DNA from: Eukaryota sp. GEM-RC1
Taxonomy: Eukaryota
Length of the DNA stretch: 64,000 bases
Assembly (NCBI GenBank): GCA_040285855.1
Contig: JAUFOQ010000004.1
Coordinates: forward strand, 744,001-808,000
Reading direction: 5' to 3'
The translations under genes were made by a program, and so were the position numbers. This document shows, in pieces, positions 4,775 through 63,269 of the stretch. The stretch's first letter is position 1, and each line of letters starts with the position of its first letter. The notes under the pieces were generated by a model, which saw only the letters and a list, made by a program, of their open reading frames with translations, did no database searches and was not told where the DNA came from.

Positions 4775-5019
4775 AAAATATTTAAAAAAGAAATTATTAA
4801 AAATTTACTCTATGTGTATCGTTTTGGTTTTGCTTCAGGGAATATCCTAGTGACTGAAATGACAAATCGGGTTCAACCAAACATAATCCTTCAATTATAG
4901 TTAGAAAGAAGGAATGATCAATCACTCCAGATGACGTGTAAGACCATTCACTGTTTAATCTCTTAATCAAATGAGTTATGAGAAGAAACAGTGAGATAAA
5001 AATTTATTAGAAGATAAAT

Positions 5020-6375
5020 CTATAACAATTCAAGAACAGAATTTTGACGAAACAAACACCCAACAAGATGGTAGTTGTCATTATCTAAAGAACTAATTTC
5101 TTTTGTACAATTAAATCCAGGGTCTGACTCTTTTGTAACAGTAATTGAACTATTCACAAGATTAATTGTGATTTCAATGATTTCATTTTGGGTTCCATTT
5201 TCCATTAGAGGATCCTAATTCCAGAAGTTATTGTAATAACTGTAAAAACAATGAGCATTTGACCCACTCCAAACATAACCACTACAATTAAACTCCTTTC
5301 TAGGAATAATTCCAATCATGATTCCATCAAAAGAAGACGAAGGAGTGCATTTCCTAGCCCTAACTTTATAGGCATTTCCTGTAAGAAGAGGAGTTTCTGA
5401 AAGAACATTGGACCAGTCTGAACCATTGTAAGTAACAGTTTTTCCTCCATTTGAAATATTTAAATTTTGATGCTTAAGACTGGAAGAAAAACTCAAAACT
5501 GAAGATTCAACAGGTTTTACACATTCAACTTGTTTTTCAACAGCTTCCTTCAATTTAAATATTTCATCATCTTTTTCCTTAATTAATTCAGTTGCTTCAA
5601 CTAATTGTTCTTTTAACGTCAAATTTTCAGAAATTATTGACTCGAAAAATATCGGACGTAATTGTTTAAAGTGGAACTTCATCAAAACTTCTTCCAAATT
5701 TGAAATATTCTCAAGATGATTTAAAAACAGCTCATCCCAGTCTTTAAAAGTCAACAGGTTAACGTCAACAAGGGTCAGAATTTATAGTTTCTGATTTAAC
5801 TGAAGCCACAAGTGACTTTAAAAACCATTTGAAAGAACTTGAAGAAGTGCAAAATTCAAGTAAACTTTGGAGAAAGATAAATGGAAAGACAAATTCAGAT
5901 TTTTGACCAATATTGTCAATTTCGGTGAGAAAATCTCCAACAAATTTTAATCCTCTCAAGTCTTCTTGTTCAACGCACTTTGTCAAGAACTTACTGCACC
6001 AGTCCCAATTGGTCATTTTTGAAGGGAGAATCTCCAAAAGAGTAGTTTTGAGATGAGGGCATTGGAAGTAAGTAGCGAGGTAGAAAACGTCATAGACGTT
6101 GGAAGAAGTGAGGTCAATGGAGTTACCAAAGAAGGAAGAGATGAAGGCGGAGAAAGACTCGGATGATACTGGCAAATGAGAGAAGTCCAGAGGGTTCTCA
6201 TAGCGATCTCCAAACTCCATAAACCAAAGAGAGAAGAAGTACTGAGAGTTGGAAGCAAGGACTGACTTAATGACAGAGAAGGACTCACCATTAAAGATAA
6301 TGGTTTGATCATGGAGACTGGAGTGTTGGACTGGAGTGTAGAGAGAGTGTTGGGTGAGGTGGATGTGAGTGTCAT
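5020..6375 (-). CDS. BTB/POZ - coiled coil - SPRY/B30.2 protein, copy 1 (frameshifted; ~20-bp deletion near 5775, possibly a pseudogene)
   Basis: HDQTIIFNGESFSVIKSVLASNSQYF BTB start; NLNISNGGKTVT..MIGII..IEITINL SPRY; near-identical to 23592-24963 and 60711-62088. Confidence 0.75.
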
Positions 6376-7022
6376 TGAAGGAGAGATTGTTTTCAATTTG
6401 ACAAACAATGTCTAGGTGTTGTTGGTTTCAGAAAAGGCATCTTTCACCAATTTCCCCTTTGATCAAACCTGCAACTAGATTCTTCAACACCTTTATTACC
6501 ATAAATAGCTACTTAATGACATATACAAAAACACACCTCATATCTGGACAAGATCTACGACAACTGAAGAAAAATTAATTGGGAGAATTCTTGTAGAACA
6601 GTTAGTATTTTTAGAAGAAATTAGTTTTCGCACAGAACATTTTTTTAATACACATGGGTAGTCTAGAAGAAGCACTCCTGCCATTTTGAAAAGAACTCGT
6701 AGGGGTCTTAACACTTATTGTGTTAAAAGTTGTGTGTAATGACGTGATTGCACACATCCTGGCACTGGGTGCTTTTTAAATTTTTACACACATGCTATGA
6801 AGCCATTTAACTCTCACCAAAAGACTGGACATACAAGTGTTCTAGTTGTACACAAACAAAATTTATTACCAATAATATACAAAAGAGGAAGGTATTAGAA
6901 ATACACTCAAAATTTTGAAAGCGTACAAATCCTATTCAAAAAAGACACCACTAGGATGAAACGTAAAACAACATTGTGAAGCAACAGAACCAAAACTACA
7001 ATGAAGACAATTAAAACCAATC

Positions 7023-8420: not shown

Positions 8421-8520
8421 AATCCGAAGATTCAATAATGCTACAGATTCACTGTAGTAAATATAGGCTATGACTATGACTATGACAAATAACTGGGTCT
8501 AACTCCTAGACCCCGCTCCA
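8421..8520 (-). ncRNA. Putative Fanzor omegaRNA (scaffold to 8441, then flank-derived guide CATTATTGAATCTTCGGATT)
   Basis: Conserved with 39421-39498 up to a sharp breakpoint; hairpins GGGTCTA-ggagt-TAGACCC and CTACAG-tgaat-CTGTAG; 5' limit unknown. Confidence 0.55.
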
Positions 8521-10020
8521 AATGATGCTCCACAATGGTCTTGATGTTGATACATGCTAACTTGTTACGATTTTAAACCTTGGCGCTACCATGACATTCT
8601 TCTCTACATTCTTGGGACTTGCATCTCAACAAAGCGTGACACTTTATCAAAGGTTTCTTCTCTCTTTTCCATGGTTTTGGATTACTGATTTCTTTGAACA
8701 CTTTAACTGCCTTCCAACAAGTCGGACACTTTGAAGACGTGTAACTCTCATCTACCAGTACAATATTGTAACCATTTCTCTTAAAGAAGTTTCTCCAACC
8801 AACACCTCCACTTGATCGGAGATGTTTTAGGTTCTGCATCTTATTACCATTGTCACCAAACATCAATACACTGTCGTTTTTATTCCATCCTTTTTCAGTC
8901 ATATTTTTCCACAACTTACTTTCTGTTTTTTGAATTTGGACGTATCTTTACATTTTTTGAATGCGCCATATCATCAAACAGTAGTAATCAAATGTTGATT
9001 CAATAACTGTAAGCTTGGAACCCACATAGTCATAGAACGTGTCATAAACGGTCGACTTTGAATTTTCTTTCGAAATTTGACTCTTCTTGTTCAGCCGTTT
9101 TTCCATCTTGGAGAATGAATTCTTTTTTCTTTCCTCTTCTGAACTTTTGATGAATCCTTGACCATCTGGACCATTCTGTCTCTGTCAATCTTAGCCACTC
9201 ATATTCTTTGTCTCTTCTTTCTCGGACTTTTTTGTTCAGGAAATGGCCTATTTACTTTCTCTGAACAAACATAGAGTAAATCTGATTTTCCAGGGTCAAT
9301 AAACACTTGTGTTTTCAATGAAAACTCTTCAATATCATAGTCTTGAACATATTCTTCTTTACTGGAGAACTTTGTACTATCTGGTTTAAATGACATTCCC
9401 ACACAGTCCTCTCTAGTTAGTTCAACACAAGCAGAGAAACCATCAGTTTTAATGGTATTGTTAAACTTATAACCTTTCTTTATAAACGAAGGATTAAAGT
9501 TGAAAAAGTAAGACCAGAATTGATTTTGTTCAGCAGGAGAATTTCAGCTTTTGTGTTCCACTCAGACATTTTTTTCTTGACGTTCACTTGTTTTGTTGAC
9601 AAAGTGGAACGTAATATTCCCCAAAGACCTTGTGTGTCTGTTTCAAAGAAGCCTAGTGTGACGTGACGAACAATCGGAATTACATTGTAAGCACTTGCTC
9701 CTTCACTTTCAAGATAGTTATCTATTTGAATCGCAGATTTCATAAAGGACTGAGGATGTTCAGGAACTGATTTTGATTTTAGTAGAGAATTAATGACTTT
9801 CTTTTTATAAACACCTTTTGAAGTTTGAATGTCAATTGACGGTGGGAGAAGTTCTGTGGTGAAGAATTTCTGCATTACATCTTTGAATAAAGTATTGTAT
9901 TTTTACAGTGGTTTTTGGAATATCATTTCTGTTACCTTCAAGAAAAACATTTTTAACTTGTCTAAGTCTCCAACGAAAAACAGATTGTTCTTTTTTTGAC
10001 ATTTTTTCTTCTTGATCAGT
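8441..10020 (-). pseudogene. Fanzor (TnpB-like RuvC nuclease), 5'-truncated decayed copy 2 of the element at 34280-39498
   Basis: Collinear with ~37830-39498: KTDGFSACVEL, VFIDPGKSDLL, LVDESYTSSKCPTC, HALLRC, NRNKLACINIK. In-frame TAA replaces the W and Q codons of copy 1. Cut at 10020 by a LINE. Confidence 0.9.
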
Positions 10021-10436
10021 TTTTTTTAAAATACACAGTTTTATTATAAATGCAATAGATCAACCAACTAAAATTTGATATCATTAAAACAACACCCGTC
10101 GCTATCAAACCTTACAACAGCGTTGTCCTCATAAATGGCACTCACTGCAAATAAAGCTTTGGAGATGATTAGGGGAACTGTTTTAAAACAGTAAAAACGA
10201 TCCGATTCAACCATAACATAAAATCAAAACGTTTGCTCATCCTATTTTTTACGATTTTTCCGAAATCGTTTAAACAATTCAATGCACTTTTTCCTAAACG
10301 TCCGTAAATTGGAAACAGCAAAAGGGCATAATTCATATTCAACATGTTTTACATGTGTTAAAGCCATCAATGGTTTCTTGTACTTATCCTGTTTAGCCTG
10401 TTCAGAAAAGTCTAAAGGAGAAGTTTCAGACGAAGC

Positions 10437-11967
10437 TAGGGATGCGAAAAAATATATTGTTATTGTATTTATTGCAATAAATATTCACAATAAATTTATT
10501 GTTGGTCAAAACAATAACAATATATTTATTGTGAGTCCCAGCAATAAATAATAATATTGCAATAATATTGTTTATTGTGGCAATAATTTTCATCACTAAA
10601 ATCATCCATCTGTTAAAAAAAATAGAGAGAATTTATTCGGCACCCAATAAGGTAACCTTCCTACAAACTATGAAATTGTAAAAACAAACAAATAATACTA
10701 AGATTAAATCCAAACGACTTCATCACCACCCGGTAAAAGATTACGTTTATCAACATTAACCTTCACACCAAACTTGTACAATTTCTCAATTAATCTAGAG
10801 AAATAGAAAGGCATATTCCGATATATGGAAAACACAATACGGTTTTTCCATTCAGCCATTCTAAACTTACGCTTCTTTTCTTTACACAATTCTTCAAAAT
10901 CCTTGAAAAATTGATCACCAGCAGGACTAATTGATCCAAAAGAGAAACATCAAAAGGTTGAAACACAAATTTGGAATATGAGTTTCTATTTAATTCTTCT
11001 ACTTGAGAGTCATACTTGGAGTGTTTGAGCTTTTCAGCAGCTGTTAACGGGTTAAAAGAAGAATCTAATATCCTACTAACACAAGATTTGTTACATACAT
11101 CTACTGTAGTAAAATCCATTAATGATTGACTCGATTTAAGCCACGGAGTATGTAGATCCCCTCTTTTTGATTCCATCTGTTTGATGTTACATGCAATTTT
11201 GCTTCCATTTGGGAGTAAGAAGATGTGTTGTGGGAGAAGTAGTCCTCTGAAGAGCTTTCACTTCAGGAAAAACAACCTAGACAAAAGAGTATAATATTTG
11301 TTTAAGTCAAATTGAAGACTGTTTGGCTTTTAAACTGCCGTAGTTCAACAAAGTCTAAACGGCAATCAAGAACTGATGACCGTAAGAGTGGGAAACATTC
11401 AGAAGAACTTTTTGCGTGGGACATACCAAGCAAGTCGAACGACTATTTAGTCGTGCTAACGTGACTACTGAAACCCTTCGCAAAAGACTATATACATCAA
11501 GTCTGGAAAAACAACTTTTTTTGAAAAAAAACGGATTTATGTGCGGAGAAAAACACATAATAAGAAAACAATAAATAAATGAACACTATTAAAACAAATT
11601 ATCAAACGAACTACCTAATTTCGAAAGGTACTAGTAGTTGCCTCCAAACAACTTGGACAAAATGGAATCAACATATCTTTTATTGATGTATAACTCTCAT
11701 CTATGGTGAAGATACTGTTCGCAAAAGTCGTAATACTAACCCTTGACTTGGTTGTTGGACAGTGAAGGAGATTTTACGGATGATGGCGAATAGACCACAA
11801 CAAAAAGGAGTCAACGGATTGCGTAGAAATATTGCCAATATATTTATTTATTTATTTGCAAACTTGACAATACCAATATTTTTATTGTTGGCCACAACAA
11901 TAACAATACATTTATTATCGTCGTGAACAATAATTTATTTAAATAAATATATTTTTTCGCATCCCTG
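10437..11967. mobile_element. Non-autonomous hAT-type TIR element
   Basis: TIR (T/C)AGGGATGCGAAAAAATATATT at both ends; 8-bp TSD GACGAAGC at 10429-10436 and 11968-11975. Confidence 0.9.
10631..11180 (-). mobile_element. 5'-truncated CRE-like LINE, family B, nested in the hAT element
   Basis: RGDL..DFTTVDVC..AAEKLKHSKY..FQPF..EWKNRIVFSIY; near-identical copy at 43211-43690. Confidence 0.75.
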
Positions 11968-14229: not shown

Positions 14230-14759
14230 ATCCAATTTTTTGGTAAACGGAGAGCAGATGTTGTTGCCCCTTCTTCTTCAGACAAATTGTTTGTTGTTGA
14301 TGTAGTGTCGGTGGATGTTTGTAAAAAGACATCTTTAAAGAACGCTTCGTCTGAAACTTCTCCTTTAGACATTTCTGAACAGGCCAAACAGGATAAGTAC
14401 AAGAAACCATTGCTAGCTTTAAAACATGTAAAACATGTTGAATACGAATTATGCCCCTTTGCTGTTTCCAATTTACGGACGTTTAGGAAAAGTGCAATGA
14501 ATTTTTTAAACGATTTCGGAAAAATCGTAAAAAAATAGGATGAACAAACGTTTTGATCATATGTTATGGTTGAATCGGATCGTTTTTACTGTTTTAAAAC
14601 AGTTCCCCTAATCATCTCCAAAGCTTTATTTGCAGTGAGTGCCATTTATGAGGACAAAGCTGTTGTAAGGTTTGATAGCGACGGGTGTTGTTTTAATGAC
14701 ATCAAATTTTAGTTGTTTGATCTATTACATTTATAATAAACTCTAATTTTTCAAAAAAA
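14230..14759 (+). mobile_element. 5'-truncated CRE-like LINE, family A, with poly(A) and TSD
   Basis: RLE C-terminal motifs; poly(A) at ~14753-14760; 13-bp TSD AGTATTTTGTCAG at 14217-14229 and 14760-14772. Confidence 0.85.
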
Positions 14760-23217: not shown

Positions 23218-23591
23218 CTTGACAATATTTAACACAATTTTTGATTGAGTGGAGAAATTAAGTGTTACTGTATGTAAGTGACTTCAACAAAACATGAGTA
23301 AGTGAGTGTACACGAGTAAAATTCAAGTGCAGCGCCACGTTAATTTTATTAGAGAGACATCACCTTGAAATACCAGAATAAAAAACGGATTTTTGTACAG
23401 AGAAAAACACACAGCAAGAAAACAATCAAATAAATAAAGACTATTAAAAATTAAAACCAGAATTGGAATCAATTAATTTGTACTGATACAAATAACACAA
23501 TTAAATCAAATCAAATCTTGCACATAGCCTATTTTGATACTTCTAGTGTTGAACCATCACTTATAGGATGCAAGTTTATTAGAAAATGAAG

Positions 23592-24963
23592 CTACAACAA
23601 CTCAAGAACACAACTATGATTAGCCAAATACCCAACAAGATGGTAGTTATCATTATCTAAAGAACTAATTTCTCTTGTACAATTAAATCCAGGGTCTGAC
23701 TCTTTTGTAACAGTAATTGAATTATTCACAAGATTAATTGTGATTTCAATGATTTCATTTCGGTTCCATTTTCCATTAGGGGTTCCTGACGGATAGAAGT
23801 TATTCCTATGACTGTAAAAACAATGAGCATTTGGCTTTGAGTAAACACCACTACAATCAAACTCTTTTCTAGGAATAATTCCAATCATTAGTTGATTAGA
23901 AACAGACGAAGGAGTGCCATTCCTAGCCCTAACTTTATAGACATTTCCTGTAAGAAGAGGAGTTTCTGAAAGAACATTGGACCAGCCTGAACCATTGTGA
24001 GTAACAGTTTTTCCTCCATTTGAAATATTTAAATTTTGACTTTTGATATCAGATGAAAAGGAAAGAACTGAAGAATCAACAGGTTTTGCACATGTATCTT
24101 GTTTTTCAACATTTTCCTTCAATTTAAATATTTCTTCATCTTTTTGCTTAATTAATTCAGTTGCTTCAACCAATTGTTCTTTTAACGTCAAATTTTCAGA
24201 AATTATTGACTCGAAAAATATCGGACGTAATTGTTTAAAGTGAAACTTCATCAAAACTTCTTCCAAATTTGAAATATTCTCAAGAGGATTTAAAAACAGC
24301 CCATCCCAGTCTTTAAAAAGTCAACAGGTTAACGTCAACAAGGGTCAGAATTTGAGATAATTCTTCAGAATTTATAGTTTCTGATTTAACTGAAGCCACA
24401 AGTGACTTAAAAAACCATTTGAAAGAACTTGAAGAAGTGCAAAATTCGAGTAAACTTTGGAGAAAGACAAATGGGAAGACAAATTCAGATTTTTCACAAA
24501 TATTTTCAATTTCTGTAAGAAAATCTCCAACAAATTTTAATCCTCTCAAGTCTTCTTGTTCAACACACTTTGTCAAGAACTTGCTGCACCAGTCCCAATT
24601 GGTCATTTTTGAAGGGAGAATCTCCATAAGAGTAGTTTTAAGATGATCACACTGGAAGTAAGTAGCAAGGTAGAAAATATCATAGACGTTGGAAGAAGTG
24701 AGGTCGATGGTGTGACCAAAGAAGGACGAGATGAAGGCGGAGAAAGACTCAAATGATATGGGCAAATGCGAGAAGTCCAAAGGGTTCTCAAAGCGATCTC
24801 CAAACTCCATAAACCAAAGAGAGAAGAAGTACTGAGAGTTGGAAGCAAGGACTGACTTAATGACAGAGAAGGACTCATCATTAAAGATAATGGTTTGATC
24901 ATGGAGATCAGTGTTGGATTGGAGTGTAGAGAGAGTGTTGGGTGAGGTGGATGTGAGTGACAT
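23592..24963 (-). CDS. BTB/POZ - coiled coil - SPRY protein, copy 2 (one frameshift in a homopolymer at ~24315)
   Basis: ORFs 24313..25011 and 23592..24266; same domains as copy 1. Confidence 0.8.
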
Positions 24964-25935
24964 TGAAGGAGAGATTTGAATTTTGTATATTTCTATCAAT
25001 TCATGGTGCAATGAGATTGCCTAGTCGACAGTTAGAGATGATGTCATCAATGTAATGCTTAGTATGAGGGTTAGATTTGCCATACAATGATTAAATTTTA
25101 GCAATATATACATACGTTCTGTCACAAACTGAATCTGCATATAACACAACTTTATGATATGGTATGGCTTGTCAAATTCTAAACTAGTTCGGCTTCGGCT
25201 TGAGCCATTTGAGTAAGCCAAGCCAAATTTGGATATGAATTGGTCAAGTCGATCGTCTTACGGCTTGAGCCGAACCGTTTGACAGCTCTAACATAACATT
25301 ATTAAAAGCTATTTTATGATTAATGAAGTACGACCTGATCTCGATCTTCCTTTGGATGATTGAAGCATTTTATCACTTCAAAAAGTTTAGACAACAGCTG
25401 GTGGATTTATTATTGAAATTTTGTTCAATCATTAGATTTACATTTGTATAGAACATTATAAACTTCACAACCAGAAGCATATTCTTCACTCTGCTTGTTT
25501 CACGACCACGATGGTATGTGACAGTAGTCGGTGGTCTTTGTTATCGATCTGATGTCTACCACCACTGATGCTACGAGGGCTTAAAAATCATATGCATCGT
25601 AATTCTTATCTTTGTCAAAACAACCTAGAAATCAAACAGAACATTCATCTGTACTAAATCTCACGGCAACTGTTTGCTTATACAAATAATTAAAGTAGCT
25701 ACTGAATTATTAACAAGAATTGCTATAGAGTGTTAGTGTAATGGCGTATTAGCCTATTTGTACCTTTATGAATTCACTTTTCTTTATTCATATGACTAAG
25801 ACCAACAAGAGGGTGTAAAGATAATGCCATCCAAATGTGCCGACACTTTTGATCGGAACGGTTGTCCATTTTTTCCTCAAAGAGAATTTGTTGCTACAAG
25901 TAAAAATTGTTACACTGATATTGCAACGTCTTGAT

Positions 25936-29301: not shown

Positions 29302-30660
29302 TTAAAAGCCCATTCTACTACCGTGTAACGATTTAATTGACTCTTTTGTTTCACTGTCAATAGGGTTGCCGAAAAGAAGAATTGATGAAACAGATGTGTT
29401 CACCTTTAAAGCCTCTGCAAGTGCCACAGCACCCTCATTTCCAATAGAGTTTTGATATAGATAAATCGTAGATAGAGCCGAATTCACCTTTATAGCCTCT
29501 GCAAGTGCCACAGCGCCCTCATTTCCAATAGAGTTTTGGTAAAGATACATCGTAGAAACCGAGGAATTCACCTTTAATGCCTCTGCAATCGCAACAGCTC
29601 CTTCCTCTCCAATGGGGTTTCTGTCCAAACAGATCTCTGAAACAGATGAAGTCACCTTCAGAGCTTCAGCAACTAGTTTAACATCCTCAGGACCAATAGA
29701 CATGTTACTTAGATTGACTTCAATGATTGTATTATTTATCATTGAATCACAACAATTCTTCAATGAGGAACCTGGGGTTAAACCAGGGGTTAGAGAACTG
29801 AGGTTAATGGAGGAAGAACCTGGGTGGAAGGTCAAACCACTTGTTGTGGGTTGACCAAGAAAGGCACCAGTACCGAAAGTTCCAGCAGTAGTACTGGGAG
29901 GATTGTTGCCAAAAGAACTACTAGTACCGAAGGAAACAGACTGTGGGGGAGATGATTTGCCAAAGGAACCAGAACCGAAAGTTCCAGCAGTAGTACTGGG
30001 AGGATTGTTGCCAAAAGAACTACTAGTACCGAAGGAAACAGACTGTGGGGGAGATGATTTGCCAAAGGAACCAGAACCGAAAGTTCCAGCAGTAGTACTG
30101 GGAGGATTGGTGCCAAAAGAACTACTAGTACCGAAGGAAACAGACTGTGGGGTTGATGGTTTGCCAAAGGAACCAGAACCGAAAGTTCCAGCAGTAGTAC
30201 TGGGAGGATTGGTGCCAAAAGAACTACTAGTACCGAAGGAAACAGACTGTGGGGTTGATGGTTTGCCAAAGGAACCAGTACCGAAAGTTCCAGCAGTAGT
30301 GCTGGGAGGATTGGTACCAAAAGAACTACTAGTACCAAAGGAAAGAGACTGTGGGGGAGATGGTTTACCAAAGGAACCAGCACTGAAAGTTCCAGTGGTA
30401 GTACTGGGAGGATTGTTAACGACAGAACTACTAGTACCAAATGAAACAGACTCTGAGGCAGAAGAGGGTTCAAGTGGTTTCGGATCTTGGGGGGAAAACT
30501 TTGGAACAAAAAAGGCATGTTTCTTCAAAGGAGAAGATACATGGGATCTTAAAGGTTCTGAACGGTGAGTCACTCGAAAACAATCATCGCATAGGTCAGA
30601 ATCACATTCAGCGCAATTAACAGTTGAAGGAGTTTGCTTACATTCGATGCATTGAGACAT
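29302..30660 (-). CDS. B-box zinc finger + FG-rich tandem repeats + ribonuclease-inhibitor-type LRRs
   Basis: CIEC..CAECDSDLCDDCFRVTH..H; 34-aa repeats; 28-aa LRRs such as LYQNSIGNEGAVALAEALKVN. Confidence 0.85.
   Translation of the reverse strand: MSQCIECKQTPSTVNCAECDSDLCDDCFRVTHRSEPLRSHVSSPLKKHAFFVPKFSPQDPKPLEPSSASESVSFGTSSSVVNNPPSTTTGTFSAGSFGKPSPPQSLSFGTSSSFGTNPPSTTAGTFGTGSFGKPSTPQSVSFGTSSSFGTNPPSTTAGTFGSGSFGKPSTPQSVSFGTSSSFGTNPPSTTAGTFGSGSFGKSSPPQSVSFGTSSSFGNNPPSTTAGTFGSGSFGKSSPPQSVSFGTSSSFGNNPPSTTAGTFGTGAFLGQPTTSGLTFHPGSSSINLSSLTPGLTPGSSLKNCCDSMINNTIIEVNLSNMSIGPEDVKLVAEALKVTSSVSEICLDRNPIGEEGAVAIAEALKVNSSVSTMYLYQNSIGNEGAVALAEAIKVNSALSTIYLYQNSIGNEGAVALAEALKVNTSVSSILLFGNPIDSETKESIKSLHGSRMGF
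29855..30452 (-). repeat. 102-bp coding tandem repeat, ~6 units
   Basis: Unit SVSFGTSSSFGTNPPSTTAGTFGSGSFGKPSTPQ. Confidence 0.95.
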
Positions 30661-31060
30661 TTCGAAAGAAGATGAAGAGTTATCAATATGACAGTCGATC
30701 AAAAGGAAAACTTGGTCTGCCGTTCAGAACTAGAAGTTATTTATTGTAGTTATTTGCTGGTGACGTGTTTAAAAGCAGTTGGTGAAGTAAAGAAAGCAGA
30801 TGAAGTTTGTTCATACTATTTGAGCGAGTATTATTTGAGCGTATCGTTTGACACTAAATGAATGTTCAGCAAAGTAGTTTATTTTGTATGGATAGAAGGA
30901 GAGAGTAGCTATTTTACGGGAAACTCGCTTGTCAAGACGGACAGAAGTGGGAAATTGTAAATGATTGACTTGAAGTGTTGAGGAAAGTTCTTAAAATACA
31001 TCCTCTGCTTCTTTCTTCATCAATCACAGTGACGTAAACCACACAGATAAAACTAAATAG

Positions 31061-33539: not shown

Positions 33540-34214
33540 CAGGGATGTTAAAAAATATATTTTTATTTTATTTATTGCAATAAATATTATTTATTTATTT
33601 ATTGTCAGCAGCTGGATCAACAATATATTTATTGTCTCAAATCGCAATATGCAATAATATTGCAATATATTGCAATATTGTGACAATATATTTTCATTGC
33701 AAATATCGAACTTTCTTCATTTCAATTCTTACAGTACTGTCTCAATTTTGTAACCAAGGATACAAACAGTTGATCATACCATCATGTAACAAAATTGAAA
33801 GATTGTTCAGTCGAGCAAAGCTTACTACTGGCACTCTTCGATCACGTTTACACCCTTCAAGCCTTGAGAAACAGTTACTTTTACTCTACAACTCCCAACT
33901 TTGGAATGAAGAGACTGATCGAAGAATTCTCCTCCACAATCCTTTTCAAGATTTGTTGCACTAAGATGGGGATGTAATAGATGAAGAATAGATTATACTA
34001 CGATAGCAATTTTTCACTGATTGATCATAAACCCGGTTTTTCTACATTATACCAGTACTAAAGTTGCAGCAGATAATAATGTCAATAAATATATTTATTT
34101 ATTGTGATGCCCGACAATATCAATATATCTATTGCAAGCCCACACAATATCAATATATTTATTGCAAGCCCACACAATATTTTATTTATTTAAATATATT
34201 TTTTAACATCCCTG
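33540..34214 (+). mobile_element. Non-autonomous hAT element with a dimerization-domain remnant
   Basis: 23-bp TIR CAGGGATGTTAAAAAATATATTT; 8-bp TSD GTTGAAAT at 33532-33539 and 34215-34222; PSCNKIERLFSRAKL..RSRLHPSSLEKQL. Confidence 0.93.
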
Positions 34215-34222
34215 GTTGAAAT

Positions 34223-37200
34223 CTTTTTGACCTGTATCTCATTGCCTTTTTCGCTTCCAAACACTGCAAAGTGTTTCGAATGATAGTAACAGGATTCAGT
34301 TACTCGCACTATCACTCGTCGTTTTTCAACAGTCGTTTTAATCAACAGTCATCTCAGTTTTGTCATGACCTAACCACGGACGGAGGCATAGAGTCCAATC
34401 CAGGACCTCCTCTTACAGATGACCTTAGAGATGAGCAACTGAGACCCGTTTTTGCACCAAACGTAGACAATATCGAGACGTTAGAGCCCAACGTCTGGGT
34501 TAATGATGATGTCATCGACTTATACGGTGATTTTCTTACAAAAAGCAGCAAATGTTGTCAGTACTTTCCAATCAATGACCTGCTTGGTGCTTCTGGTGTT
34601 TATGATTTTCAACTATTGTTAAAAAAAATTCGAATACCTAATAACTTCAATGAATGTTTGTGTTCCGAAGAAACGATTCATATTCATGCCAATCAACGAT
34701 GGCCTTGTCGGTAAAACACCGACTCATTGGACACTTCTAATTTGCGATATTAAGATTAGACGACTTTTTTCAATCGATTCAACGTATACTGAAGAGGAAC
34801 ACTTCAAACATCTGGCGAATACAATTCGAGCTTCTCGCAATGAAAAAGTAGTCCAACGTTTACAGCAAGATTTGTTTAATGACGCACAGTATTTGTATAT
34901 GGATAAACTAGTTGTAAAGCAAGAGCAAACTGAAAACGATTGTGGACCTTTTATTCTATTGTACATTCAAAAGTTTGTTACCTTAACAGACTCATATATT
35001 GATTGTTCATCTATCGATTTTAAGGAAATTTTAACCAAACTTGTAACTAGCCAAGACTATGATGCTTTAAAAATGAGGAAAGAAGTTTTGACTCATATTT
35101 CGACTACTCAATCAGCAGAGAGGGCTAAACGTGCTAGAGAAATCTTAAACAAATTCTTTTCCGTTTATTCGACACCTTCTCAACAGCGTCGTAAACCCAA
35201 AAACCAGATGCAAGAAAGAAAAAAGGTCCTAAAACTAAACAACCGGCCAAAAAAAGAAAGAAGACTGCTAATACTTCTCAATCTCCCGGTCCATTGTGCC
35301 ATATCACTGAAAGTAAATCTTGCTAGGTTCAAGGGACTAAAAACATGGAACTCGCCGTTTGATTTATCTGAACCTTCTACACTGATATCATCTACTCATG
35401 AAATTCCAGATCCTAACAAACTGACAAAAACTCAATTACAAGAGGTTTCAGAAGCAATCAAATCGTTGTCATCTGAAGAATCGATTGCAGAAGAATGTGT
35501 CAATTGGTACTCTCGTCATTTGATGGACATATACAAAGTTGATTTCAATGCCTTTGTAGCTTCTGGATCACTTCAATCATATTTAGTTGATGAAACTCAA
35601 TCTCTCCACGAGTTTTTCATGAACAAGATTCTTCAGACAGATTCCAGATATCTTTTTGTTCCAATAAATGATGCAATGACTGGTTTACATTGGGGTTTGA
35701 TTGTAATTGACAAAAATGATCTACAAGTAATATTTCTCGATCCTCTTTATAATGTTGAAGATCACAGGCAGGATGTTGATAAAAATTTAAATGAAATTGA
35801 CTCTTATTTGAATCAAGATATTTCAAAAATACATGAAATTCTTCATCAACTCCAGTTTCAGCTCATTATTGTCCCAGTGCTACAGAAACAAACAGCAAAT
35901 GATTGTGGAGTATATGTTCTTCAGTTTATGCGAGGACTTATAGAACTTCTGACTTCAAACCAATTCACAGATCAATCTCTTCTCCATGCTGCTGATAGAA
36001 TGATACAACAACCTATCAATACTAGGGAGAGTAGACAAGAAATAAAAGTGTACCTTCAATCTCTACAACCTCCTACAAGTAGAAACCGCATATCTGGACA
36101 AACCAAAATTAAGCGAACATGCAAATATCCGGTGAAAAAAACTGACAAAGTTGCTCAAAAAAAAGTCAAAAAGGATTATACGAAAGCCCAGTGATTCTGA
36201 TATAGAGGTTCCAAATGTGACTCATAAAGAATTTCTAAATAGTTTACCAGGTGATTTGTCTAACCGACAAAGAGACGTCGCTTGAAGTTGCACATGATAC
36301 AACACGCACTTCAAGAAGCTGAACAATTGTTTCAGGATTCTTTGATTCGTCCAAAGTTAGAGACTTTAGCTCCAATAGATTTGACAACTCCTAAAATAAA
36401 CGTTGCTGCTTGTGAGAAAACTGAAACCACAAAGACACCAGCTAAGAGTACAACAAAAGTTGGCAAATCCAAAAAGTCAACAACCAAACCAAAGGCAAGT
36501 GGTAAAACTAATGCTACCAAGAGTCTTAAACCTCCTAAGAAACAAATGATTGAGTTTCATTGTAATTCTGAATTACCAGAAGACTCTAACTCTTGTTCAA
36601 TATTGTCGTTTGATATTGAAACAAGAGAAGTTGATCAATTGCCTGTTAAGAAACTTACACAGAAGTTGAATGATCAAAGACATGAACAAAATGAAGTTTT
36701 AAAAAACCAAAGTGATTCAGAAAGAGAAGCTTGGATTGAAAAACAACAAGTGTTTATGATTTCTGGAGTTTTCGGTCATTTTATTAAGGATGAGTTTTAC
36801 CTTCAAGAAAGCTTCGTTGCGACTTCAGAAGAATCAACTTCCTTTTCAAAAGTTGAAAATCCAACTGATTGTCATAGCCTTTTCTTCTTTGAAGATGAAA
36901 AACAGTTACTAGAGTTTTTTGTCAATTATTTGACTGATAAAAATCCATCTGTTTTAACTGGATTTAACATTACTAATTTTGATAATGTTGTTCTAGACAA
37001 TAGAATTGATGCATTTGGAATAGACTTTCCAGAACCAATGCAAGATGATACCACAAAATCACATTTGTCACCTTTATGGCAACGTGTTTGTACTGAATGG
37101 GCTGGTAGAACTGTCTGTGATTCTTACCTCTATGCTAAACAATTCATTGCTACAAAATGTTCAAGATCACTAAGATCACTAAGTTGGTTTTTATTAAATG

Positions 37201-39498
37201 AATCAAAAGGGCATCTCCATGACAAATTCGAACACTTGTTACCTATTGATTGTGTTAGTAGACGACCTCAAGAAGTTCTAAACTATTGTTTCCAAAGACA
37301 GTGTATTAGCATTGAAGTTGTTTTTATTATTTCAATCAAATAAAATAGTTCGTCCCACTTTTGTAACACATAAGACTACACTGAAGTCTATTGTAAAACA
37401 TACAGGACTGGAATTATTGTTGAATTATTATGCTCTATTGGTTCATAAGCTACGGATGCACACTTCTTATTGTTTGAAGCTGTTTTTATTGCATTTAAAT
37501 AAGAATGAGCTTCCACTACCATTAATTTCAAGGAAAGAGGTTGAACACATTCAAACGTTGCTGAAGGAAATCTCTGCTGATCGTCATAAGATTAAACTAA
37601 ACAATGGAAATCCAACAATTAATGACGACTTGAGAACATTTGTTACAAATCAATACAAACAAGTAATGATGGACAATGGTGGTATTCCACAATTTCCAGC
37701 TGCATATTCTCCACGACTTATGGCAATGGTAGGTGAAACAATCAAAACAAATTTGAACACCAATATTAAAATGCGATATCCTCAGTACATTGACAAATTT
37801 ATTAATGTTTGGTTTGAAAAGAATAGTGTTGAAGAAGAAATGTCTAAAAAAGAAAAGTCTGTATTTCGTTGGAGATTGAGACAAGTAAAGAATGTTTTTC
37901 TTCAAAGGAATAGAAACGATATTCCAACGACCACTGAAGAAATACAGGAGTTTATTGAACAATCTAATGCAGAAATTCTTGAAGATGACAGTGAGAAAAG
38001 CTTAAGCATTGCAGATAAAATGCAACTTTTAAGGCAAAGCCACGACACTGTTCTAAAACTGTTCCAAGATAATGTCTGCATTGATATCCTCTTCCCACCA
38101 ACAATTAAAATTCAAAAGTCAAATGGTGATTATGAAGACAAACAGATTGATTCTCTACTTAAAGCAGTACATGAACATCCACAATCGTTTATTAAATCAG
38201 CAATACAGATAAATAACTTTCTTGAAGAGGATGAAGCCAGTACTTACAATATAATTCCGATTGTTCGACACGTGGTTCCAGGCTTCTTTGGAAGTAGACA
38301 CACAAGGTCTTTGGGGAATATTACGTTCCACATTAACCAATCATCAGGTTAAAGAGAAAAAAAACAGATCTGAGTGGAATTCAATTGAGGAAAATTAGGC
38401 ACATGTCTCCTGCCGAACAAAATCAATTCTGGTCATACTTTGTCAATTTTAATCGTCCATTTATAAAGAAAGGCTATAAGTTTAACAATTCTATTAAAAC
38501 TGATGGTTTCTCTGCTTGTGTTGAACTTACCAGAGAGGACTGTGTGGGAATGTCGTTCAAACCAGACAGCGCAAAGTTCTCCAGTACTGATGAATATGTT
38601 CAAGACTATGATATTGAAGAGTTTACATTGAAAACAAAAGTTTACATTGATCCTGGCAAGAAGGATTTACTCTACTTCTGTTCAGAAAAAATAAGAAAGC
38701 CAGAAAATTTAGCCCGTGAAATGAGAAACAAAGAATACGAGTGGCTAAGATTGACAGAAACAGAATGGTCGAGATTGTCCAGAGTCCATCAAAAGTTTAG
38801 AAGGGAAAAGAAAAAAGAATTTATTCTCCGAGATGAAAAAACGGTTGAACAAGAAGAGTCAACATTATCCAAAGAAAATTCAAAGTCAACCGTGTATGAA
38901 ACCTTCTATGACTATGTGGGTTCCAAACTGACAGTTATTGAATCAACATTTGATTACTACTGTTTGATGATATGGCGCATTCAAAAATGCAAAGATATGT
39001 CCATATTCAAAAAACAAAAAGTAAGTTGTTGAAAAATATGACTGCAAAAGGATGGAATAAAAATGACTGTGTATTGATGTTTGGTGACAATGGTAATAAG
39101 AGGCAGAACCTAAAACACCTCCGATCAAGTAGAGGTGTGATGTGGAGAAACTTCTTTAAGAGAAATGGTTACAATATTGTTCTCGTAGATGAGAGTTACA
39201 CGTCTTCAAAGTGTCCTACTTGTTGGGGGCCAGTCAAAGTGTTTATGGAAGTTGACAATCCTCGACCCAAGACACAAGAAGAGAAGCCTACGGTGAAGTT
39301 ACATGCGTTGTTGAGATGTCAATCTGAGAAGTGTAGAGAAGAATGTGATGACAAAGACAAAGTGTGGAATCGTAACAAGTTAGCGTGTATCAACATCAAA
39401 GCTATTGTGGAGCATCATTTGGAGCGGGGTCTAGGAGTTAGACCCAGTTATTTGTCATAGTCATAGTTATAGACTATATTTACTACGTGAATCCGCAG
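34223..39498 (+). mobile_element. Fanzor-encoding element; right end defined, left end not determined, no transposase recognised
   Basis: Homology with the copy at 8441-10020 stops abruptly after GTGAATC(C/T)G(C/T)AG at 39498. Confidence 0.7.
34280..39460 (+). CDS. Multidomain Fanzor polyprotein (~1700 aa once frameshifts are bridged): 2A-like peptide, 2x Ulp1/SENP protease, PolB-type DEDDy exonuclease, Fanzor/TnpB RuvC
   Basis: Six same-strand ORFs joined by single-base shifts. DLTTDGGIESNPGP; PIND..HW..DS..Q..NDCG twice; SFDIET / TGFNITNFD / YCxKD; KTDG, YIDPG, VDESYTSSKCPTC, WNRN..ACINI, RPSYLS*. Confidence 0.85.
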
Positions 39499-39518
39499 TT
39501 ATCTGAGTAATCATCTTT
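39421..39518 (+). ncRNA. Putative Fanzor omegaRNA overlapping the ORF end (scaffold to 39498; guide TTATCTGAGTAATCATCTTT)
   Basis: Hairpin 39427-39445 (GGGTCTA/TAGACCC), stem ATAGTC/GACTAT and terminal stem CTACG/CGCAG; non-coding conservation for 38 nt past the stop in both copies. Confidence 0.6.
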
Positions 39519-39862: not shown

Positions 39863-40807
39863 CAGTTTATGGAACAAAAACACTAAAATAAACATAAATA
39901 CTAGAATTCAATATCATCAAAGCAACAATCATTGCCATTAAAACACACATCAGATTTTTCTTCATAAAAAACACTGAGAGCTAATAGAGCTTTTGAAATC
40001 ATGATAGGAATTGTTTTAAATATTGTAAAAACAATACGATTCAACCAAAATTTGAAATCAAATTTCTTGTTCATTCTTTTTTTGACCACTTTCTCAAAAT
40101 CAGAGAGAAAACAAAGAGCATCTCTACCAAGTCGACCATAAATTGAAATTGCAAAAGGACATAATTTGTACTCAACATGTCTAATATGTTTGAGAGCAGT
40201 CAGTGGTTCATCATATTTGTTTCTCTTGTATTGTTCTGAAGAATTCAGTGGAGAAACTTCATTTTTAGCATCCTTGAATGCACTTTTTTTGCAAACATCC
40301 ACAGTAATCACATAAACAACGGTTAGTTCATCATTAGCTGATGGAACTATAACATCAGCTCTTCGTTTACCAAAAGTCTTATCAGAATCACTATTTTTGG
40401 AAATTATTGATTTCCAGTGATCTCAACAGTGGCTCAACGAAAGATTCGATTTTGTAGGACTTACACATAGCATGAATTTGATCTCTGACAGCATCATGAA
40501 TACAAGTTCTATAAGTAATGAAACGATTACAACTCAAAAGGTGAGAAAAAGTAACTAATTTACCACATTTGCATTGAAGATCATTGGGTAAATTAGAGGG
40601 CCACAAGAAACATCGAAGTCTGAATGTTGTAGTCCATTGATGATCATTCAACAACAAACCATAAATCTGAGGAATTTGGTTAATCAAAGCAACTGAAGAA
40701 CTGTCCTTCAAATCGATTAAAAAATTTGCGACAGCTGGATTTTTTTCTTTGGCCGAGCCAAGTCGAATTTTAAAATCCAAACATTCAAAATGTTTTAAAA
40801 GGTGTTT
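39863..40807 (-). mobile_element. 5'-truncated CRE-like non-LTR retrotransposon (zinc knuckle + restriction-like endonuclease)
   Basis: CKCG..HLLSC, IHDAVRD, EP, RADV, TVDVC, K..KY, PFAISIYGRLG; 13-bp TSD TTGCAAAGAAGAT at 39850-39862 and 40808-40820. Confidence 0.88.
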
Positions 40808-40887
40808 TTGCAAAGAAGATGAATACTACTAGTACAGTAGTACAGTTCATACTTGTAGTATGAAAACGGATTTCAGAATTTAACTTC

Positions 40888-60276: not shown

Positions 60277-60710
60277 GTTTTGAGTTTCGTGAATGATGAA
60301 ACAGTTTGTGAATCACTGGTAGTACCGGTATCACTTGAAAATATTTAACATAATATTTATTGAAGTGTTACCGTATGTGAACGACTTCAAAAAAACATGA
60401 GTAACTGTGTTTACAAGAGTAAAATTCAAGTGCAGCACCACTATAGTGTTGATCTTATTAGAGTGACATCACCTTTAAATACCAGAATAAAAAACGGATT
60501 TATGTACAGAGAAAAACACACAGCAAGAATACAACAAAAAATTAAAGACTATTAAAAATTAAAACCAGAATTGGAATCAATTAATTTGTACTGATAAAAA
60601 TAACACAATTAATTCAAATCAAATCTTGCACATAGCCTGTTTTACTACCTCTAGTATTGAACCATCACTTCACTTACACTTATAGAATGCAAGTTTATTA
60701 GAAGATGAAG

Positions 60711-62088
60711 CTATAACAACTCAAGGACTGAATGTTTCCAATGCAAACACCCAACAAGATGGTAGTTATCATTATCTAAAGAACTAATTTCTCTTGTACA
60801 ATTAAATCCAGGGTCTGACTCTTTTGTAACGGTTATTGAATTATTCACAAGATTAATTGTGATTTGAATAATTTCATTTGAGGGCCATACTCCATTAGGG
60901 GATCCTGGAGAATAGAAGTTGTTGTAAGCACTAAAGAAACAATGAGCATTTGACTTTGAGTAAACACCACCACCACTAACAAACTCTTTTCTAGGAATAA
61001 TTCCAATCATTAGACAATTACGAATAGACGAAAAAGGGCCATTCCTAGCCCTAACTTTATAGACATTTCCTGTAAGAAGAGGAGTTTCTGAAATAACATT
61101 ATACCAGTCAGTTGGACCATGGTGAGTAACAGTTTTTCCTCCATTTGAAATATTTAAATTTTGATGTTTAAGACTAGAAGAGAAACTCAAAACTGAAGAT
61201 TCAACAGGTTTTGCACATTCCTCCTGTTTTTCAACAATTTCCTTCAATTTAAATATTTGCTCATCTTTTTCCTTAATTAATTCAGTTGCTTCAACTAATT
61301 GTTCTTTTAACGCTAAATTTTCAGAAATTATTGACTCAAAAATATCGGACGTAATTGCTTAAAGTGAAACTTCATAACAATTTCTTCCAAATTTGAAATA
61401 TTCTCAAGAGGATTTAAAAACAGCTCATCCCAGTCTTTTAAAGTCAACAGGTTAACGTCAACAAGGGTCAGAATTTCAGATAATTCTTCAGAATTTATAG
61501 TTTCTGATTTAACTGAAGCCACAAGTGATTTTAAAAACCATTTAAAAGAACTTGAAGAAGTGCAAAATTCAAGTAAATTTTGGAGAAAAACAAATGGGAA
61601 AACAAATTCAGATTGTTGACAAACATTTTCAATTTCTCTAAGAAATTCTCCAACAAATTTTAATCCTCTCAAGTCTTCTTGTTCAACACACTTTGCCAAG
61701 AACTTACTGCACCAGTCCCAATTGGTCATTTTTGAAGGAAGAATCTCCATAAGAGTAGTCTCAAGATGATCACATTGGAAGTAAGTGGCGAGGTAGAAAA
61801 CGTCATAGACGTTAGAAGAAGTGAGGTCAATGGAGTGACCAAAGAACGAAGAGATGAAGGCGGAGAAAGACTCGGATGATATGGGCAAATGAGAGAAGTC
61901 CAAAGGGTTCTCGAAGCGATCTCCAAACTCCATAAACCAAAGAGAGAAGAAGTACTGAGAGTTGGAAGCAAGGACTGACTTAATAACAGAGAAGGATTCA
62001 CCATTAAAGATAATGGTTTGATCATGGAGACTGGAGTGTTGGACTGGAGTGTAGAGAGAGTGTTGGGTGAGGTGGATGTGAGTGACAT
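60711..62088 (-). CDS. BTB/POZ - coiled coil - SPRY protein, copy 3 (frameshifted)
   Basis: ORFs 61328..62179 and 60711..61247. Confidence 0.8.
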
Positions 62089-63269
62089 TGAAGGAGAGAA
62101 TTGAATGAAGATTATCTAAGAGATAACAGATCTTTCTATTAGGGATGGCGGCCGGCCCACTTTTTACTCTCGACTTCAAAGGGACGAAAATTCATACTGT
62201 ATCGGTTGTAGGTCAGTCTTTATATTCAAGAGTAGAAGTAACATCACTTCTTGTTTGTTTAACGTAGTGATGTGGAAAATTTATTTAATTATAATTAATT
62301 GAGTTAATTCCCTGAGAATTAATTACATTAATTGTACTTTACTGAAGCCTGGCAAAAAGGCATTGTTGTTTTTACATGTGTCGGACCCATTTGGGATTAA
62401 GAAATCAAACATATAACGACCAGTTATTCTCCCCAAAAGTGATCGGGAAAGATATTTTTTGACATAAACTCCTTTCGTGATCACTCTTGGGATATATACG
62501 TTAGACGAAGTGTATAGTGGATAGTTACACCATCCATCTATTAGCAAAACGAGTGATTTTACAAAATCGTTAAAGAGAGAATTGATGTAAGAACATTCGA
62601 TATGTATGTCTGTACTCTCCTTAGTATATGGTCGGGCAGATTGGCGGTAACAAATGTTTGAAGGTATAACCCATCATATTCAAAATTCTTGCACTTGTTT
62701 TATACAAAGATTGTCTTACGGTCATTCATTCAGAAGTACCGTATCCTTTGATATTATGTTTGAAACACAGAAACTGCTTAAGAAAACCCCCGAATTTAAC
62801 ACTAACTGTGACGGTAAACAAACAGTAGGATGCTGCTCGGTCAAATAGACGAATCTCTATATACCAGCAACAAACTTATCGAAAATATAATATAAATAGT
62901 GTTCACTTGGAACACACAACATCCGACTATTTACTATTTACAGCAATCTCATCTTCTACAAGTGTTACGTTCGACAGAGTTTGAGAGAAAAAGACTCAAC
63001 TTTGTTTTTTTGATGAGCTTGAGTATTTCACAAGTCATGTCTCAAGCCAATCCACTCTCTCGATCACTAAAGTAACTCATGTATTATAGAGAACGAGACC
63101 AATGAAGTTTACTTTCCGGCAATTTCTCTATATGTATTTATATTTTGTTTAATTTGTTTTATTTTGTTTTATTTGCATATTCTTCAAAAAGGCCCAAAAA
63201 GAAATAATAATACAAATAAATACAATTCATTAGAATTTGTATTTATTTATGAGGAGCCCTGGATATACT

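Follow-up and report, generated by a model that had tools for sequence, protein, structure and literature searches.

The window, a 64,000-nucleotide stretch of the genome of Eukaryota sp. GEM-RC1, holds two copies of a gene whose 3' part encodes a Fanzor1 protein. In copy 1, on the forward strand, this part is preceded by a putative 2A-like motif, proteases of the Ulp1 type and a PolB-type exonuclease, whereas copy 2, on the reverse strand, is 5'-truncated. The features of the two copies are as follows.

34367..34408, + strand: putative 2A/StopGo-like motif, ending GIESNPGP, near the ORF start
34450..35980, boundaries approximate, + strand: two tandem Ulp1/C48 cysteine protease domains (Pfam PF02902, E 1e-21, 2 stretches)
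34722/34935 and 35685/35898, + strand: Ulp1 His/Cys motifs
36282..37343, + strand: PolB-type 3'-5' exonuclease domain (Pfam PF03104, E 8e-17)
36609-23, 36963-83 and 37281-95, + strand: exonuclease motifs ExoI (FDIET), ExoII (FNITNFD) and ExoIII (NYCFQ)
37312..39460, N-terminal boundary approximate, + strand: Fanzor1 part of copy 1 (WED/REC/RuvC/TNB), from tblastn of intact relatives and PDB matches
38649..38651, + strand: RuvC-I catalytic Asp of copy 1, in IDPGK (38646-60)
39191..39193, + strand: rearranged RuvC-II catalytic Glu of copy 1, in VDESY, aligned with SpuFz1 E541
39374..39376, + strand: RuvC-III Asn codon AAC of copy 1, in WNRNKLACINI, at the column of SpuFz1 D606 and GtFz1 N658
39404..39500, + strand: candidate scaffold of an omega-RNA, overlapping the final 18 codons; beyond about 39500 the copies no longer resemble each other
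~8440..10035, - strand: copy 2, pseudogene, 5'-truncated, 83% identical
9300-9286, 8755-8741 and 8566-8564, - strand: copy 2 IDPGK, VDESY and the Asn of NRN

The first-pass annotation had read the RuvC-I Asp (IDPG, 38649) and the RuvC-II Glu (VDE, 39191) of copy 1 as intact and the RuvC-III motif as carrying Asn, and all three readings hold at these positions, the Asn standing in the column of the Asp in WNRD of SpuFz1 and PpFz1. When searched against the PDB, the C-terminal ORF of copy 1 retrieved PpFz1 (E 4.5e-19) and SpuFz1 (E 3.6e-14), with WNRN opposite WNRD. Counted along the alignment, the family triad corresponds to residues 777, 935 and 1000 of the 8GKH chain, which are the published D383, E541 and D606 at a constant offset of 394; this single offset places the Asn at the third catalytic position and speaks against a misalignment. 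Fanzor1 proteins are defined by a RuvC-I DPG motif and a rearranged RuvC-II Glu near the zinc finger (PMC10711439); copy 1 has IDPGK, and its rearranged Glu lies six codons upstream of the first zinc-finger CxxC (CPTC, 39212-39223). In the Fanzor1 motif of PMC3627910 a C4 zinc finger (TNB) is followed by RD; the zinc finger is present in copy 1 and the motif after it reads RN instead, as it also does in the accepted member GtFz1. The Fanzor1 part matches Pfam PF07282 at E 9e-5, under the curated cut-off. By its sequence, the copy 1 site is a D-E-N variant of the GtFz1 type, with Asn as the third residue and the first two acids intact.

An AlphaFold2 model of the relative P0003 (pLDDT 85, pTM 0.77) puts D341 on a strand, E523 after a strand and N578 at the start of the last RuvC helix. 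Its top seven PDB matches are all Fz1 structures, namely PpFz1, SpuFz1 and GtFz1 (E about 3e-22 to 2e-12, TM 0.53-0.67); Foldseek gives E values of about 1e-22 to 1e-20 against SpuFz1/PpFz1 and of 0.01 against Fz2. The modeled fold and the size of the family are closer to Fanzor1 than to Fz2, TnpB or Cas12, at an identity to the solved Fanzor1s of ~15-22% over the fold. Possible compensating acids enriched in the clade are E299, D304, D313, E380 and E408 (P0003 numbering), none of them adjacent to the motifs in sequence. The fungal proteins SpuFz1 (8GKH) and PpFz1 (9CF0) are the nearest solved relatives by both sequence and fold. They share with the family a DP[GN] RuvC-I motif, the rearranged Glu and the C4 zinc finger, but have the canonical Asp at RuvC-III, and the portions of the literature available to us report neither a protease nor an exonuclease fused to them; PpFz1 has an insertion domain of its own (PMC11423790). 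GtFz1 of Guillardia theta (PDB 9CER) agrees with the family in its D-E-N triad, and a 70-sequence profile sets its WNRN in the same column as the WNRD of SpuFz1/PpFz1 and the WNRN of the family. Nevertheless, it is more distant than SpuFz1/PpFz1 (234 bits against ~525), having been missed by single-sequence and 10-sequence searches and found only by this profile and the fold search, and the accessible portions of PMC11423790 and PMC10432273 describe no protease or exonuclease fusion in it. Given this greater distance, the Asn of GtFz1, which lies outside the trees presented here, probably had a separate origin from that of the family.

Neither window copy is functional as assembled. Copy 1 (~34271 to 39460) is divided into eight separate segments totaling 1,714 codons, with seven frame breaks and zero stops; breaks lie right behind ExoIII NYCFQ, where relatives read YCFQDS, and, inside the Fanzor1 part, near 38290, 38390 and 38985, one of the seven parting RuvC-I from RuvC-II/III. 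With break positions set by eye against the relatives, four of the seven fall in A-runs of 4-8 bases, which make up 9% of the region (binomial p ~0.002). As 5.4% of point changes in this region would create a stop, the presence of seven indels but zero stops is better explained by homopolymer errors of long reads, or by slippage, than by long decay. Hence, the frameshifts of copy 1 are likely to be partly assembly errors, and the copy may be intact in the organism. At the break between RuvC-I and RuvC-II/III (38983-38987) copy 1 has five A and copy 2 has six. The same break occurs in P0174, P0175, P0178, P0179, P0183, P0186 and P0188, seven predicted proteins that are all named GEM-RC1 and fall into two subfamilies ~88% identical, while the site-spanning proteins of two other organisms, TZLM1-RC and TZLM3-RCL, read through the site. 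The shared break may be a systematic assembly error, an inherited lesion or a programmed frameshift.

Copy 2, in turn, is a true pseudogene: a TAA (8575-8573, - strand) replaces the Trp directly before NRN, a second in-frame TAA lies at 8950-8948 (- strand), and there are several indels. Its AAC codon, which the earlier reading had also reported, is present on the minus strand at 8566-8564. The stops and indels of copy 2 and the seven frame breaks of copy 1 had been overlooked in that reading. Comparison of the two copies gives a dN/dS ratio of 0.24 over 429 codons (Fisher p 8e-20); for the RuvC-II/TNB/RuvC-III region alone (154 codons) it is 0.25, and shifted-frame controls yield 1.3 and 1.5. 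Such purifying selection fits an RNA/DNA-binding protein and a nuclease equally well.

Several other repeats are present in the window. Just upstream of the copy 1 ORF lies a non-autonomous DNA transposon (33540-34214) that has terminal inverted repeats and is flanked by a perfect 8-bp target duplication; from its form we take it to be hAT-like. Its short ORF has zero Pfam matches, and related ends occur at 11960 and 15512. Repeated fragments at 39900-40813 (- strand), 10020-10436 and 14238-14759 look like the terminal part of a non-LTR retrotransposon of the kind that has a restriction-like endonuclease; they likewise have zero Pfam matches, and one of these retrotransposon-like fragments lies immediately next to the point where copy 2 is 5'-truncated. 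A repeat of 1.4-1.8 kb with ORFs is present in three copies ~89% identical (5000-6388, 23218-24981 and 60334-62106) and in shorter fragments. Finally, an ORF at 29302-30702 (- strand) combines an N-terminal zinc-finger-like stretch, FG-rich tandem repeats of 34 aa and C-terminal leucine-rich-like repeats.

The close relatives of the window protein are NCBI proteins of Eukaryota sp. TZLM3-RCL, GEM-RC1 and TZLM1-RC, the last of which we take to be a skoliomonad as well. GEM-RC and TZLM3-RCL are Skoliomonas, free-living metamonads sequenced as nanopore assemblies with short-read correction (PMC11316075). Family counts are based on 72 predicted proteins standing in for genomic copies, the window's own being excluded. 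At RuvC-III, 44 of the 45 that cover the site have Asn; the sole Asp is in P0201, a fragment of 143 aa that has also lost one zinc-finger Cys. Asp calls in P0015 and P0018 were discarded as false pattern matches within the exonuclease domain. RuvC-I has Asp in 40 of 42 covering proteins and Glu in 2, the Pro of the motif being present in 37 of 42; RuvC-II has Glu in 46 of 47, and the zinc-finger Cys are kept in 44-47 of 46-47. The RuvC-I Asp, the RuvC-II Glu, the zinc finger and the C-terminal RuvC helix are all retained across subfamilies 32-56% identical, and Asn-bearing members include intact ORFs of 1,571-1,905 aa. This multi-copy Fanzor1 family, many of whose members are fragments, is thus fixed for Asn at the third RuvC position, and at 44 of 45 chance is excluded as the source of the residue. 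When P0003 was used to scan metagenomes, the 50 pattern matches included zero relatives, and the Atlas matches (score 0.76) are leads only. One family protein, P0023 (2,027 aa), begins with a DEAH-helicase-like region; its gene model may be chimeric, combining a host gene with an inserted element.

In intact relatives a single ORF of up to ~1,900 aa contains a 2A-like motif, one or two Ulp1 proteases, a PolB-type exonuclease and Fanzor1; P0006 (1,846 aa) and P0026 (1,905 aa), for example, have an NPGP 2A-like motif, two Ulp1/C48 domains, the exonuclease and Fanzor1. The motif of the relatives, DGDVEANPGP, is closer to the 2A consensus (taken from PMC12338488) than is the GIESNPGP of the window. 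The exonuclease spans the whole N clade (P0004, P0005, P0196, P0205) with its Exo motifs intact, and a search with the exonuclease returned only four family proteins. Among the distant subfamilies, the exonuclease is found in P0196, P0205 and P0208 and the NPGP motif in P0205 and P0208. Other Fanzor1-bearing mobile elements of eukaryotes are multi-copy, as is this family, and scans of the window ORF and six relatives detected no transposase domain. This fusion to two protease domains and an exonuclease is a less familiar feature than the Asn replacement: literature searches did not turn it up, nor did we find it in the available portions of the Fanzor literature (PMC3627910, PMC10432273, PMC10530073, PMC10711439), whose supplementary tables may list it.

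A search of 1.84 billion representatives yielded 583 matches, of which the best 150 were examined together with the window ORF. In this set RuvC-III has Asp in 117 and Asn in 22 (two being the window's own), the remainder being Glu (2), Gly (1), Ser (1) and gaps (8), so that the replacement for Asp is nearly always Asn. The Asn rows from the other 149 representatives number 20, with 11 from TZLM1-RC, TZLM3-RCL and GEM-RC1, 7 in one group and 2 singletons; six of the group of seven were looked up and are from Coemansia. This separate Coemansia Fanzor1 group (P0046, P0066, P0082, P0098, P0124, P0138) reads NRN or similar, and three of its Asn proteins, P0082, P0098 and P0124, have zero Pfam matches for a protease or an exonuclease. 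In P0082 and P0098 the RuvC-I motif is DxG instead of DPG. A quick LG+G4 tree was built from 64 of 70 aligned proteins, with four near-copies and two site-lacking rows left out and the trait column dropped. It unites the 10 family rows in one clade (SH-aLRT 100) and requires five changes of the Asn/Asp label, four of them forced by strongly supported branches, gains not being distinguishable from reversions and one long-branch warning being attached. Grouping all 15 Asn rows in a single clade is rejected (AU p=6e-9). A single origin of Asn in Fanzor1 is therefore rejected, and the residue recurs.

The 3' end of copy 1 contains a candidate omega-RNA. The omega-RNA of GtFz1 overlaps the last 17 codons of its gene (PMC10432273), and the candidate is likewise placed at the 3' end of the ORF. 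The longest run in which the window copies are identical (64 nt, 39404-39467) comprises the stop codon and the 18 codons before it. Within it, at 39427-39445, lies a perfect 7-bp hairpin that only these two copies have. Third-position changes number zero in this run against 33 of 136 upstream (p ~0.007, for a region chosen post hoc); an identical run of 59 nt exists elsewhere between the two copies. Folding z-scores of the candidate are weak, from -0.2 to -1.9, and an Rfam scan near the 3' end gave one chance match and nothing relevant. Within the 64-kb window the putative guides had no other match at up to four mismatches, and neither a target nor a TAM was found there.

Several observations on characterized proteins bear on whether such a site is active. 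In natural GtFz1 the third Asp is replaced by N658, and the D-E-N enzyme nonetheless cleaves DNA; moreover, the D606N mutant of SpuFz1 is more active than the wild type, and the N658D mutant of GtFz1 is less active (PMC11423790). Since the same replacement is known in a working Fanzor, the family is likely to be active rather than dead, and by analogy with GtFz1 we consider it probable (about 0.72) that its members are active dsDNA nucleases, guided by an omega-RNA and using a D-E-N site. In favor of this reading count the position of PpFz1 and of SpuFz1, which tolerates D606N, as the nearest solved relatives, the conservation of the other catalytic residues, the nearly exclusive use of Asn where Asp is replaced, the recurrence of Asn in Fanzor1, the lack of protease and exonuclease matches in the three Coemansia Asn proteins and the dN/dS of 0.24 between the copies. 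Against it count the extrapolation of activity from proteins only ~15-22% identical over the fold and the existence of bacterial TldRs with a single changed triad residue. The first-pass annotation had leaned towards an attenuated, nicking or dead enzyme and had listed a non-canonical but active site last, and it is this last option alone that has published precedent, in GtFz1 and SpuFz1. At the same time, indels were not detectable with GtFz1 in human cells, whereas three other Fanzors produced them (PMC10432273), which counts against assuming strong activity, and D-to-N raised activity in neither Cas12a nor TnpB (PMC11423790), so that tolerance of the replacement depends on context.

These last two results, together with the restriction of GtFz1 to Mg2+ (PMC11423790), also speak for an attenuated nuclease or nickase. 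Here the Asn would weaken metal binding, so that the enzyme mostly nicks or cuts slowly, and the exonuclease, fused throughout the N clade with intact motifs, would widen the nick to a gap. We regard this as unlikely, because Asn is the more active residue in both Fanzor1s tested, GtFz1 cut both strands in vitro (PMC10432273) and the Coemansia Asn proteins scanned have no exonuclease match. The Asn might, on the other hand, be a product of decay or sequencing error in dead copies, given that both window copies are broken as assembled. This is refuted by its fixation in three organisms, intact ORFs included, and in a fully supported clade; the earlier proposal of a family trait is upheld, and a predominance of Asp among the copies, named there as contrary evidence, is not what the relatives display.

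A nuclease-dead RNA-guided platform, a eukaryotic analog of the TldRs that carries the Ulp1 proteases and the exonuclease to guide-chosen DNA, appears distinctly improbable. In its favor, the proteases, exonuclease and Fanzor are joined in one ORF in intact relatives, and no transposase domain was detected in the relatives scanned. TldRs, moreover, share with the family a TnpB-family fold and a changed RuvC triad, and include members with one, two or three changed residues. However, they were first defined by the loss of at least two RuvC acids and display a progressive loss of one to three, often with that of the zinc finger (bioRxiv 10.1101/2023.11.30.569447), whereas the family has the D-to-N change only, with Asp and Glu conserved, the four Cys and the C-terminal helix kept across divergent subfamilies and none of the drift typical of TldRs. 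An identical D-E-N site is active in GtFz1, and the many copies and fragments resemble a selfish element rather than a domesticated gene. Of the suggestion that the protein delivers a protease and an exonuclease to DNA, the fusion itself is thus borne out by the intact relatives, while its delivery by a dead platform is opposed by the active site of GtFz1.

If the family is indeed an active nuclease, the candidate omega-RNA that extends into the 3' end of the coding sequence would guide the protein to DNA, the RuvC-I Asp and RuvC-II Glu would hold Mg2+ with Asn as a neutral third ligand, and the single site would cut both strands in turn. More speculatively, the break might aid the spread or persistence of the element, the fused exonuclease might trim the cut ends, and the protease might remove SUMO-like marks or process the polyprotein. 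It is conceivable, though doubtful, that these parts form a transposase-less selfish element expressed as one polyprotein, in which the D-E-N Fanzor1 cuts or nicks, the exonuclease processes the ends, the SUMO-type proteases strip host marks and the element is copied into the break. If true, the element would amount to an RNA-guided homing machine that brings along modules of its own for end processing and for countering silencing.

The D-to-N site itself is already known; what is added here is that it occurs repeatedly and is fixed throughout a clade. Xu et al. (2024) termed the Asn unique to GtFz1 (PMC11423790), yet it turns up in several Fanzor1 lineages, and a whole metamonad clade is fixed for it. 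A D-to-N change in Fanzor1 should hence not be scored as a dead nuclease, and screens that call RuvC dead from it would misfile such proteins. The Asn-bearing proteins lend themselves naturally to tests of why Fanzor1 is suited to Asn. With the 2A-Ulp1-exonuclease-Fanzor1 arrangement, nature offers its own example of an RNA-guided nuclease fused to an exonuclease, from which one might learn how Fanzor elements with no visible transposase spread.
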